Shown one piece after another: positions 4,244 to 39,657 of a stretch of DNA of 64,000 bases. A program made the position numbers and the translations under genes. The notes under the pieces were generated by a model. That model did no database searches. It was not told where the DNA came from and saw only the letters and a list, made by a program, of their open reading frames with translations. The number at the start of each line of letters is the position of its first letter. Within the stretch, counting starts at the first letter, position 1. The stretch is taken from positions 762 to 64,761 of IMG/VR virus record IMGVR_UViG_3300023213_000167. One strand, 5' to 3'. The DNA comes from a virus.

Positions 4244-4672
4244 ATGGCTTTGCCCAGCGCGAATATTAGTGATCTTGCACAACTCTCCTACAAGGAGACC
4301 GGCACAGGCATTGTGGGTTCGCTTGTTTGCCCAGCCCCTGGTCAACACTTCACTCCGATAACCAATGTCTCCGGCGCCAATGCCTCCATGCAGCTTAATA
4401 CAGGGGGTTTTGGTGGAATGCGGTGGGTTCTACGCCGCCTCTTCGGTTTCCTCAGCGCCGCGGGTACCGCAACGGTCAGCATACAACACGCAAGTGGCAT
4501 TGTGTGGACGTTACCTAACTTGACATCTACGGCACAGATCAGCCTGATTCCCTCGCCGGATTTGCCAGAGGTTGGCCTTGTCACGCCCAGCGGGTTTGCC
4601 CTTATCATTAACGTTGGCGCCGCCGGTGTAGGCGTCACAAGCACCATCATCATGCTGGCGGACCTTATCTAA
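4244..4672 (+). CDS. Hypothetical virion protein
   Basis: 142 aa, G/A/T/S-rich and beta-like, tightly packed between structural genes. Confidence 0.5.
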   Translation: MALPSANISDLAQLSYKETGTGIVGSLVCPAPGQHFTPITNVSGANASMQLNTGGFGGMRWVLRRLFGFLSAAGTATVSIQHASGIVWTLPNLTSTAQISLIPSPDLPEVGLVTPSGFALIINVGAAGVGVTSTIIMLADLI

Positions 4673-32817: not shown

Positions 32818-33530
32818 ACGGCGGGGCCGATTCCCCGCCGTGCCGCACAGGAAACGCACACGACACTACCTACACCTACGCCATCACAAAAGGCATTTCG
32901 TGTAGGAGGCAGAGACATTCGCGATCATCCCCATCCGCGACGACCGCCGGGTCCCCTGCCGCGGGCATCACAGGTACGCCGAGGGTGTTACCGCCACGGC
33001 ACCTGTGACCTGCATCCCCGCCCTGTAACCCCACCCGCGCCCATTCTCCCATCCTGAGTTGCGAGTGTCCCCCCTGTTACTTCCGCCGGTAGCAGAAAGC
33101 ATGGGGTTTGGAGCCCCAGAGACCTCTGCGTCCCGGTACTACGTTGGTCAGGCTTTTACGTGTCACCGTAGGGTTACCGGCGACGACCCACCCTCTCTCA
33201 GTGCCCCTTTTGACAGCTTTGGGGCATCCCCTAGCCTGACAAGCGGCGCCGTACAACAGCACCGCCTCCCCAAGTCAGCGTTAGCCTCCCTCGGGGGTAC
33301 CTGGCCCTGGGGTTCTGTGCATCCCGCGAGAGTATTAGTCAAGCGTGGCGCGTGAAACCCCGGCATCCAGTCACTACAGCCGTTTCCAGCCCCCGGCCTG
33401 CGTTATCCTCGTCATGTATCGACGGTACGCCGCAGAACAGCCACCGAAGTAGCCTACCGGGTGCGTACTTTGGCATCGGCGTATAACCCCACCGTCGGGT
33501 GCGTGCGCAGCCGAGCACGCCTCGGATGCG
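32817..33530 (-). ncRNA. Candidate large structured non-coding RNA (~700 nt)
   Basis: No ORF with a credible RBS; many helices including UUCG- and GAAA-capped hairpins and two 8-bp long-range stems; directly follows a tRNA-like element. Confidence 0.5.
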
Positions 33531-33532
33531 TA

Positions 33533-33601
33533 TGGAAGGACTCGGGGGGATTCGAACCCCCAACCGCGTTTGGCGGACGCGCTTTAAGTCACCCTAGTCC
33601 T
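33533..33601 (-). tRNA. Aberrant tRNA-Gly(GCC)-like element with CCA end and no D-arm
   Basis: T-arm GGGGG-TTCGAAT-CCCCC, arm CGCGT-CCGCCAA-ACGCG, 7/8-bp acceptor, then U-CCA; only 12 nt where the D-arm belongs. Confidence 0.5.
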
Positions 33602-34101
33602 ACATCAAGCCAGACCAGGAAAGTCGCGCGCAGGTGGCCCACAGAACTTGACTAGCGTTAGCCCGTCTCTGCTATACCTGCGTCCGAGCCCCGTACAACG
33701 ATATCGTCCGTTACTTCCGCGGGCAATTCTACCAGTCGCGCAGGGGTTTCATGGCCCGCCTCCTTTTCCCAGGGTGCACGCCAGACACCATCCACGCCAA
33801 GTATCATGTCGACAATAGCCGGCCCCGCGCCAGATAGCCAGTCCTCAAAATTACGCGCGGCAATCACGGACTGTATCCCCAAATAACCGTAGCCAAAAGC
33901 CGCGCAATGCGACTGGCGTGAACGTAATGCAGCTTACCTGCGTATAGGGCGTCGTTCTGGGTCTCGATAGCCTGGCGCTCTTTTTCGGTGAACGTTACGG
34001 TGTAGATCACCTCACCACTGGGCGTTGAAGTGCGCTCCATGATACCCTCCCCCCTGTCTATGGTTAAGCCGCAGCCCCGCCTCACCTTTCTGCCTTACTA
34101 T

Positions 34102-34412: not shown

Positions 34413-34601
34413 TTACCCCTCATGGTCAGCGCCCAATCCTCCATTCATCGCGAGAAAGACGCAGTCGCAGCAATCCTCCGGCCCCTCCGCGATGCACTGT
34501 TCGATCAGGTTCTGCCGGAGCTCGAACGGGAGGTTCCGCTCGTCTGTCCCCAACGACTCTGCCACTTCCGCGATAGGGCACACGAAGATTTGCTCTACCA
34601 T
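34413..34601 (-). CDS. Cys-rich microprotein (paralog A, 62 aa)
   Basis: MVEQIFVCPIAEVAESLG...PFELRQNLIEQC...DCCDCVFLAMNGG. Confidence 0.6.
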   Translation of the reverse strand: MVEQIFVCPIAEVAESLGTDERNLPFELRQNLIEQCIAEGPEDCCDCVFLAMNGGLGADHEG

Positions 34602-34762
34602 TGGTCCCCCAACCCCGGCCCGCCGTTCATGGCGAGCCATGCGCACGTGCAGTCATTCCCGCATATGTCGATCATGTCGTGCCGTAGCTCCTCGGGTACG
34701 GCGCTTACGTGCAACCCTAGCTCGGACGCCAACCAGTCTATCGGACACGCGGCAGTTGCCAT
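34595..34762 (-). CDS. Cys-rich microprotein (paralog B, 55 aa), not in the ORF track
   Basis: GGGGAGG RBS; MATAACPIDWLASELG...PEELRHDMIDICGNDCTCAWLAMNGG. Confidence 0.65.
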   Translation of the reverse strand: MATAACPIDWLASELGLHVSAVPEELRHDMIDICGNDCTCAWLAMNGGPGLGDQW

Positions 34763-36710
34763 CCTCCCCTCACCTGCGGTGTTATTGTTGTACTACGCCC
34801 GTGACACACACCAGCCGTGGCCGCACAGACAGCTACCCCGTATAAAGGGCAGTTCGTGCCAAGCGCAGATACAAACAAGGGCGCCACGGGGATACCAAGC
34901 TTTAACCAAGCACGCTACACTTGGCGGGCGTCCTGGCGGCGTTTCCTCTTCTACGCCTGATCCGGCCCATGCTAATAGCGATGGCGACCGTATGTCAAGG
35001 TTGGGGGCACAGTCACTGGCCGCCCCCCGGGCGTTGTACGAGTGTTTACTCCCAATATGCCAGCACGATGGCGTGGCTGGGGTCCACGTATCCTAGAAGC
35101 CACGGATCACTGACCGGGTTGAAGGTGGAGTACATCGGCGCGGCGACCTTGAAGCACCGGAACAGCCCGGTACGGCGGGCTTCCTCATACTTCAGTAGCG
35201 CCTGATCGGGGATGTGGCCGGTGTAGGAGCCGATGTCTTCCCAATCCACGTGCCGGACGTTGAACAGCCGGAACGGAATCGTCTTCCGGATGCGGTCTCG
35301 CAACGTACCGATGTCCATGATCAGTCCGAACTGAGCTTCCGCCAGGTCCCAGCGGCCCCGCGTCTGCTGCCCGGCCAAGTCTTGGCGGATTTCCGCCACC
35401 TTCGCCCTGTCCTCCGCCGCTTCACATGGTGCCGTCTCTACCTTTAGCATCCCGCTTCCTCCTGTGAAAGAAGTTACACCACGCACGGTTGTTGTCGCCG
35501 CCCGCTTCCCCGCCCATAGCTCCATTGAACAGCCCGTTGTTGCGGCGGTTCACTTCGCTGTCACACGCCCCCCGGGTCGCGGCCATGTCTTTGTGATACC
35601 CGCACAATTCTCCAATACCACGGCTGCGGACGGGGTAGCACTCGGGGCAATCTTGTGGGCTCATAGCACCTCCCCGGATGGGATGATAATGTCCGTGATA
35701 CGTGCCTCTGGAGGCAGCGGAGCTGGCGGGTCCGCGTGGTACCTCTGCTCCGCGGCAACGGCCTTGTCGAGCCAGACCAGTGCCGCGGCGTCACGGCCCT
35801 CGTACGCGTCGCGCAGGGCCATCGCGAAGTAGCACTTGGCGCGCGGGGGAAGGTCTCGCACGCCAGGCATGGTCATGAACATGGTGACCGGGATGACGGG
35901 CACCGCAACGATGTGTGGTGGCAACTGTTTCACCAGGTCGTTTCCTTCCATACAGGCTTGCCCACTTCCACCAGGTCACTGCTCCACGGGCAGCCGACAA
36001 CCTTGTCCTCGGCATCTCGCGTGAAGTGCAGCATCATGCGAAAGATACTGGGCCTACTGGTCACCGTCATCGGGGCTAATTGACTACAGCCCCCGCACCG
36101 GCCAAAAGGGCGCCGCGTTAACACCGGCATGGCTTTACCCCTTTCCCCCTGTCCACGCCTCCTCATCTGCAGGGTTCAACAACGGGACGACGGGCGGGCG
36201 TGGGTCGCGCGTCCCCCCATTCTCATAGAACCGTTTCACGACGTCCGCAGACTCTCGAAACTCCACGCCACGGTCATCGTTGCCCGGATGCGGACTGCGG
36301 TACTTCTTCCCGCCCATGAGATTCTTACGCCGTCTCATGCGTACCTCCCCGGCTTACGCCGGCCGTCCGGCAAGTGACACCCGCACGTCAGCAGCGGCGG
36401 GGTGGTCCCCGCCGTGCTGCGCGTTGTATCCCAACGCTTGCGCGCCTTCCCGCGTCCATACACGCGCACCATGTCATGCCACAACGCGCCAAGATACAAC
36501 GTCAGCTTTTGCCGCTCCGCCACGCTCAGCACGTTACCGCACGCACGCGTGGATGATGTCAGCCTTGACCTCGTACAGGATGTTCTTAATCTGAGCTATC
36601 TCGCCGTCGCTGAAAGCCGCGGCGACGCCCGCCGCCGACACCAGGAAGCCAAAGGCCACTCCCGCTATGAACTTTAGCATGTCTGCTCACCTCCTCCACA
36701 CGAAATTCGT

Positions 36711-39261: not shown

Positions 39262-39657
39262 GTTATTCAGGCTCCCGAGACAACGGCGTCCAACGACATA
39301 CACAGGGAATCCGCCGCGGGCGTCCTGGACAGCAGCTGCACCCGCAATACCACACCCACATCCGGGTGTACCGCAAGAGGTACCACCGAATTGGAGCCGT
39401 GGCTATTGCCGGCATACTTTGTCACCGCGAGGGATTCCCGCTTCGGCCACCGCAATGTCAAGCACCAACCGGCGCGCCCCCAACGGCGGATGCGCCAATT
39501 CCCAGGCAATCGTGCGCCCAACCTCGCTCGTGGTTATCACCGTGCGATTCAATTCCACGCCAATGCCGTCCGGATTCAAGCCTTCGGCGTTATACCAACG
39601 ACCGCGCAGCGCCACGCTGATACGCTTTTGCGCCATCGCGCCTCACCGCCTTCCGGT

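Follow-up and report, generated by a model that had tools for sequence, protein, structure and literature searches.

Ordinary phage tRNA-Gly(GCC) genes, for example those at L152:1290-1364 and L151:10843-10917 in other viral contigs, score 76 to 77 bits with the Rfam tRNA model (RF00005), whose gathering cut-off is 29 bits. For comparison, 26 ordinary phage tRNAs in two arrays score between 30 and 77 bits, nearly all of them between 46 and 77. tRNAs that lack a D-arm, such as mitochondrial tRNA-Ser(AGY), and tRNA-like RNAs of the mascRNA type are RNase P substrates. Phages do carry tRNAs with branches other than 7/5 (Mukai et al., PMC5389517), altered loops in phage tRNAs have been proposed as a defence against anticodon nucleases (PMC10264068), and a nuclease that cleaves between positions 32 and 33 has been described (PMC11724271). 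Elongator tRNAs almost always have U33 (PMC5041475), and bacterial glycine identity needs U73 (PMC9976931, the source of the whole bacterial tRNA-Gly identity set used here).

The glycine tRNA-like element (Gly-like element) compared with these systems lies in an uncultured phage. The window, meaning the whole 64,000-base stretch of DNA that was analysed, covers bases 762 to 64761 of a 66,321-base IMG/VR virus record that is ~75% complete. The phage encodes a family A DNA polymerase, a large terminase, a primase-type Toprim protein, and a helicase-like ATPase, and the same record holds a phiEco32-type amidoligase cassette. No match to PF00589 or PF00239, the tyrosine and serine recombinase families, was found in the ~75% complete record, so the phage looks lytic. 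Genes around the element are on the minus strand, and about 0.7 kb downstream of it contains no called gene. The features of the locus, listed 5′ to 3′ on that strand, are as follows.

34174-34102, minus strand: tRNA-His-like gene with the 8-nt loop CCGUGGAG (Rfam, 54 bits, and ARAGORN fold), upstream of the Gly-like element and after small ORFs
34040-33864 and 33867-33658, minus strand: two small ORFs between the tRNA-His-like gene and the Gly-like element
33611/33601 to 33533, minus strand: the Gly-like element, after ORF 33867-33658
33611-33605, minus strand: alternative 5′ acceptor strand GGCUUGA of the ARAGORN cloverleaf
33601-33594, minus strand: 5′ acceptor strand AGGACUAG of the D-armless fold, paired with CGAGUCCU
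33593-33582, minus strand: 12-nt unpaired linker in place of a D-arm, as drawn in the D-armless fold
33581-33565, minus strand: anticodon arm CGCGU-CCGCCAA-ACGCG, with a 5-bp stem and 7-nt loop (sequence and ARAGORN fold)
33576-33570, minus strand: anticodon loop CCGCCAA (sequence)
33576-33575, minus strand: C32 C33 (sequence; position 37 is A)
33574-33572, minus strand: GCC anticodon (sequence)
33564-33562, minus strand: variable region GUU, unusually short at 3 bases (sequence)
33561-33545, minus strand: canonical T-arm GGGGG-UUCGAAU-CCCCC (sequence)
33544-33537, minus strand: 3′ acceptor strand CGAGUCCU, which pairs with either competing 5′ strand
33536, minus strand: U discriminator of the D-armless fold (sequence)
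33535-33533, minus strand: encoded CCA, the 3′ end only in the D-armless fold

The element is identical in sequence in an independent contig, L148, from a second assembly of the same phage (JGI sample 3300023212), and it is therefore not an assembly artefact. That sample assembled the phage (99.95 to 99.99% identical) as two contigs, L142 and L148, which both end inside the gene-free spacer (window 33234-33323) with an overlap of ~90 bases; L142 stops 200 bases before reaching the element. The two contigs differ from the window at 34885 and 34915 (single-base indels), at 33910 (a substitution), and at 39330-39332 (a 3-base indel). A coding ORF across the element was considered and rejected, as it has no Pfam match and no gene is called there. 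Nearby on the minus strand, the adjacent small ORFs 34413-34646 and 34595-34762 appear to be paralogues that share the pattern C-x-I...E-L-G...C...C-x-C-x-x-L-A-M-N-G-G, and neither matches a known family.

Minus-strand bases 33581 to 33533 form a flawless 3′ portion of a tRNA. The anticodon stem, the T-arm, and loop positions 34 to 38 have no defects; the 64-kb window holds no other canonical T-arm, and this one matches base for base that of ordinary phage tRNA-Gly(GCC) genes in other viral contigs. With those genes the element shares the identical 17-base T-arm, GCC followed by AA, a U before the 3′ tail, and a site just downstream of a tRNA-His gene. It differs from them in having CC rather than UU at positions 32 and 33, only 3 bases (GUU) rather than 5 between the anticodon arm and the T-arm, an unrelated acceptor sequence, a D-arm unrecognisable by sequence, one extra base before CCA in a 7-bp register, and an Rfam score below 12.7 bits. 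Judged from its sequence, the 3′ part is unmistakably tRNA-derived and beyond what chance would give. The preliminary description of this DNA had recognised a canonical T-arm and a GCC loop with C33, and both are borne out, at 33561-33545 and at 33576-33570 (CCGCCAA, with C at 33575). Its view that the retained parts look non-random also holds, given the flawless 3′ two-thirds and the same UU-to-CC replacement at positions 32 and 33 of the neighbouring tRNA.

Position 33 of the element (33575) is thus C where a canonical tRNA has U. Among 208 tRNAs called by ARAGORN in the fetched loci, U33 occurs in 203 and C33 in 3, and all three of the latter carry CC at positions 32 and 33 and lie in phage contigs; this phage is not alone in having C32 C33. 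The first of the three is a tRNA-Ile(GAU) at L151:10582-10655 (minus strand), in an 18-tRNA stretch of a 277-kb phage contig, with loop CCGAUUA and an Rfam score of 47.5 bits. The other two, at L155:4035-4117 and L157:3566-3648, are Thr(CGU) tRNAs called by ARAGORN only.

The 5′ part can be drawn in two ways that share bases and are mutually exclusive. In the first, the D-armless fold, AGGACUAG pairs with CGAGUCCU through six Watson-Crick pairs, an A.G mismatch, and a G-C pair, followed directly by U and CCA. The preliminary description had proposed an 8-bp acceptor; the two strands do pair, but they form only 7 pairs, with the A.G mismatch at the seventh position. The absence of a D-arm likewise applies only to the fold that starts at 33601, as do U73 and the encoded CCA. 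In the second fold, ARAGORN, which had been suggested as a check, does call a tRNA-Gly(GCC), but as a full cloverleaf at 33611-33538 on the minus strand, starting 10 nt farther upstream than 33601, and not as a D-armless RNA. This fold draws a D-arm, UAGG/CUUA, with loop ACUAGGGUGA and with U8, A14, G18, G19, and A21 in register, and bases 33582 to 33593 become part of the D-loop and the 3′ D-stem. All four canonical arms are present in it, but the acceptor has four Watson-Crick pairs besides two G.U pairs and an A.C mismatch, only 4 bp remain in the T-stem, and two surplus bases separate the D stem from the anticodon stem. C (33538) becomes the discriminator, no CCA follows, and U73 and the encoded CCA are lost.

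We estimated how readily such folds arise by chance by keeping the real 3′ part, shuffling the 90 bases upstream of it, and rerunning ARAGORN in 3,000 trials. A tRNA was called on 160 of the 3,000 shuffled 5′ halves (5.3%), 105 times as Gly. A 6-bp Watson-Crick helix abutting the T-arm occurred in 4.0% of 200,000 random trials, and the same helix with N-CCA next in 0.06%. In the ensemble of the isolated 79-mer, pair probabilities were 0.7 to 0.9 for the D-armless helix and 0.02 for the ARAGORN helix, and the constrained minimum energies of the two folds were nearly equal (-22.9 and -22.7 kcal/mol); with 30 to 60 flanking bases included, neither was favoured. Each fold is thus only modestly above chance, and neither 5′ reading is secure.

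The covariance model RF00005 did not report the element even at E values up to 10; the best match from the tRNA clan reached 12.7 bits over the T-arm only, so the RF00005 score lies below that value and short of the cut-off. The best full-length Rfam alignment was to mascRNA (RF01684) on the D-armless fold, at 25.3 bits against a cut-off of 42.5 and with an E value that would be near 1 across the whole window, and we regard it as structural resemblance only. In that fold the element is like mascRNA and metazoan mitochondrial tRNA-Ser(AGY) in carrying an acceptor on the T-arm, an anticodon-like hairpin, and a short linker for the D-arm; it is unlike them in that there is no homology and a D-arm can still be drawn with the other 5′ strand. 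Long acceptors, like the 8-bp one of the D-armless fold, also occur in tRNA-Sec (8/5) and in 8/4 and 9/3 tRNAs (PMC5389517), but the branch of the latter stays at 12 bp and they retain a D-arm and, in most cases, a long variable arm, all of which the element lacks; with an 8/5 (or 9/4) branch of 13 bp and no D-arm, the D-armless fold falls outside the 8/4 and 9/3 classes. The UCA anticodon and long variable arm of bacterial tRNA-Sec are both missing from the element. A standard or permuted tmRNA was rejected: RF00023, RF01850, and RF04321 gave only local matches to the T-arm or 3′ end, at 8.5 to 23.3 bits against cut-offs of 47 to 84 bits, and an ARAGORN tmRNA search found none.

The tRNA-His-like neighbour, in contrast, scores 54 bits with the Rfam tRNA model. 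Its loop, CCGUGGAG, departs from the UUGUGGA of ordinary phage tRNA-His by a U32U33-to-CC replacement plus one extra 3′ G, and the Gly-like loop CCGCCAA departs from the UUGCCAA of ordinary phage tRNA-Gly by the UU-to-CC replacement alone. The four-base anticodon (gtgg) that ARAGORN assigns to the tRNA-His-like gene is probably a misreading. The extra G could pair with C32 to leave a 6-nt loop; this gene lacks the histidine identity elements G-1 and C73, and no CCA is encoded. The gene is enclosed by a 19-bp stem (34201-34183 with 34086-34068), whose four G.U pairs can form only in minus-strand RNA. Its duplex energy of -62.4 kcal/mol is highly significant against shuffled sequences (-39.1 ± 4.8 kcal/mol). 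The 3′ arm of this stem has a weaker extension that runs as far as about 34052-34038, where the next ORF has its ribosome-binding site and start codon. A comparable processing stem flanking the Gly-like element was sought and rejected, at -45.7 kcal/mol versus -51.7 kcal/mol for shuffles.

A tRNA-His(GUG) gene lies directly upstream of a tRNA-Gly(GCC) gene in four phage tRNA arrays (L151, L152, L153, and L158), and the His-then-Gly order in the window is the order in those four fetched arrays. Together with the identical UU-to-CC change, this order suggests that the pair entered as a block and that a common cause altered both loops. Nuclease evasion of the kind described in PMC10264068 would, by analogy, be one candidate cause.

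Searches for relatives of the locus returned little. A blastn search with the 1.6-kb region found nothing in phage genomes, the element alone gave only generic T-arm and anticodon-arm matches, and its 5′ half matched no tRNA in 50,697 phage genomes. Exact and gapped patterns of the element gave nothing useful in viral contigs, and a loose pattern run against metagenomes returned mainly the variable arms of tRNA-Ser. Used as queries, the neighbour proteins led to no related viral loci; the DNA polymerase likewise led to none and had no close relative. A neighbour protein had no homologue among 5.8 billion proteins. Since no relatives of the element were found, covariation cannot choose between the two folds. 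Distant relatives of the phage, whose COOH-NH2 ligases are about 35 to 40% identical, share its gene order. A counterpart of the Gly-like element is absent from them; three (L143, L144, and L150) carry no tRNA, and a fourth, L149, has an unrelated long-armed tRNA-Ile(UAU) upstream of its amidoligase cassette. This last tRNA (L149:3997-4088, in a 60.9-kb contig with a 37% identical ligase) is a 92-base UAU tRNA with a long variable arm and encoded ACCA, scores 60 bits with Rfam, and sits in the small-gene region upstream of the cassette. In an unrelated phage tRNA array, L155:4512-4975 is a GOLLD RNA (192 bits) with an embedded tRNA-Ile(UAU) at 4576-4647.

We give roughly even credence to the reading that the Gly-like element is a degenerate derivative of tRNA-Gly(GCC) that has lost normal decoding, that is, a degenerating or repurposed gene. 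This reading is based on the unmistakable tRNA character of the 3′ part, the Rfam score below 12.7 bits, the lack of any phage tRNA match to the 5′ half, the near-chance quality of both 5′ readings, the failure of either fold to be favoured once flanks are included, and the lack of a flanking stem, and also on the gene-free spacer that adjoins the element and its lack of a counterpart in distant relatives. On this account, a two-gene His-then-Gly tRNA islet would occupy an early, minus-strand region, with the Gly-like element as its second gene and a tRNA-Gly(GCC) gene as its ancestor. The 5′ third would have diverged until the D-arm and the 5′ side of the acceptor could be drawn only in two weak and exclusive ways, with C33, a variable region of 3 nt, and a mismatch at the acceptor's base as further defects, and the standard decoding function would have been lost. 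The derived gene would now sit at the edge of the 0.7-kb gene-free stretch, presumably dispensable DNA. If its RNA is still used, the likeliest activity would be a passive one: RNase P could recognise and cut the acceptor/T-arm helix with its 3′ NCCA and so set the 3′ end of the upstream two-ORF message.

Several observations count against degeneration. The decay is very uneven, leaving the anticodon stem, T-arm, and loop positions 34 to 38 intact, and the helix AGGACU/AGUCCU is followed by U and CCA, a joint occurrence with a chance of about 0.06%. The adjacent tRNA has undergone the very same U32U33-to-CC change, which suggests that selection acted on both for one reason, and a C32 C33 tRNA in another phage array scores as high as 47.5 bits. 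Phage genomes, moreover, usually purge useless DNA.

The flawless 3′ part, the NCCA in register, and the shared C32 C33 speak for two working forms. The first, which we consider possible but somewhat doubtful, is a D-armless tRNA mimic whose 8-bp acceptor stacks on the 5-bp T-stem and which has a linker of 12 nt, U73, and its CCA encoded. It would be cut by RNase P at 33601/33602 and would serve as a nuclease decoy, a non-ribosomal glycine carrier, or a signal for an mRNA end. The low chance figure for a 6-bp Watson-Crick helix followed by N-CCA argues for this reading, as do the dominance of that helix in the isolated 79-mer and the end-to-end alignment of mascRNA, a D-arm-poor tRNA-like RNA. 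Elements of glycine identity are also present. C35 and C36 come with the GCC anticodon in any fold, the D-armless fold supplies the U discriminator that the ARAGORN fold replaces with C, and a 7-bp register has G1-C72, U73, C35, and C36 together (identity set from PMC9976931). The C32 C33 change common to the neighbour and the nuclease-defeating loop changes proposed for phage tRNAs (PMC10264068) are further points in its favour. Against it, the mascRNA score is far below its cut-off, the stem contains the A.G mismatch, and the acceptor and T branch comes to 13 bp instead of 12. The C2-G71 pair is missing as well: the first acceptor pair in the 8-bp fold is A-U, and no register has C-G as its second pair, which is always G-C or G.U. 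No homologue was found in the viral contigs, metagenome pattern search, or species genomes covered, the tRNA-type bases U8, A14, G18, G19, and A21 are in register for the rival cloverleaf, and the fold is not favoured once flanks are included.

It is unlikely, in our judgement, that the element is instead an odd but functional cloverleaf tRNA-Gly(GCC) at 33611-33538, matured by RNase P, 3′ trimming, and CCA addition and reading the commonest glycine codons. ARAGORN calls it; U8, A14, G18, G19, A21, A37, and the T-loop invariants are in place; and MAFFT aligned its D region with that of an ordinary phage tRNA-Gly. GGC and GGU make up 62% of the glycine codons in the phage's long ORFs, and the neighbouring tRNA likewise lacks an encoded CCA. 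A working tRNA of this form would, however, have to tolerate a score below 12.7 bits with the Rfam tRNA model, an acceptor with two G.U pairs and an A.C mismatch, a T-stem cut to 4 bp, and two extra bases between the D and anticodon stems. It would also have a C discriminator where U73 is required (PMC9976931) and C at position 33 where U33 is almost invariant (PMC5041475), and ARAGORN also makes tRNA calls on 5.3% of shuffled 5′ halves.

A further idea, to which we assign a similarly low probability, treats the tRNA-His-like gene and the Gly-like element as a matched pair of altered tRNA mimics, in which C32 C33 would escape or soak up a host anticodon-loop nuclease and the Gly-like member would have been pared to a D-armless, CCA-ended form still matured by RNase P. 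The element is like the phage tRNAs implicated in nuclease resistance (PMC10264068) in being a phage tRNA-type gene with a loop altered at positions flanking the anticodon, here in two adjacent genes alike. It is unlike them in that its tRNA body is defective; the published tRNAs are normal in other respects and were set against a known host. A decoy role for the element, as raised in the preliminary description, is plausible only by this analogy.

Very improbable is an origin from a host tRNA gene, whether as its 3′ portion carried in an attachment site or as a scar left by recombination with such a gene: only the region from the anticodon stem to the 3′ end is tRNA-like, which is the block typically duplicated at tRNA integration sites, but the record has no tyrosine or serine recombinase, none of the 21 places at which the 21-base T-loop-to-acceptor string occurs among 185,579 species genomes shows a GCC anticodon (those with a readable anticodon belong to tRNA-Ala, tRNA-Arg, or other types), and C33 would itself be unlikely in a host glycine tRNA. 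An attachment-site fragment in particular was rejected, with no integrase in the ~75% complete record and no matching host glycine tRNA.

The other two roles proposed for the element are likewise unsupported. An aminoacyl donor would call for a FemAB-type transferase, and none was found in the virus record; C2-G71 is absent in every fold. No CCA-adding enzyme was found in the record either, and a link to tRNA-dependent transferases or to a phage CCA-adding enzyme was rejected for want of both enzymes there. A signal for processing the adjacent RNA finds no flanking processing stem here, unlike at the neighbouring tRNA.

The Gly-like element is not proven to be a new kind of RNA; a tRNA gene in decay or put to another use is the likeliest account. 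As a relic, it would show no more than that automated tRNA annotation of phages can depend on a 5′ half that arose by chance, and ARAGORN accepts about 1 in 20 shuffled sequences. Should the D-armless form be produced and have a use, a bacterial virus would provide an example of a minimal tRNA shape that is, to our knowledge, known so far mainly from animal mitochondria. Were that form true, the element, with the change at positions 32 and 33 of its neighbour, would offer a test case for phages tuning or sacrificing tRNA loops against host nucleases.
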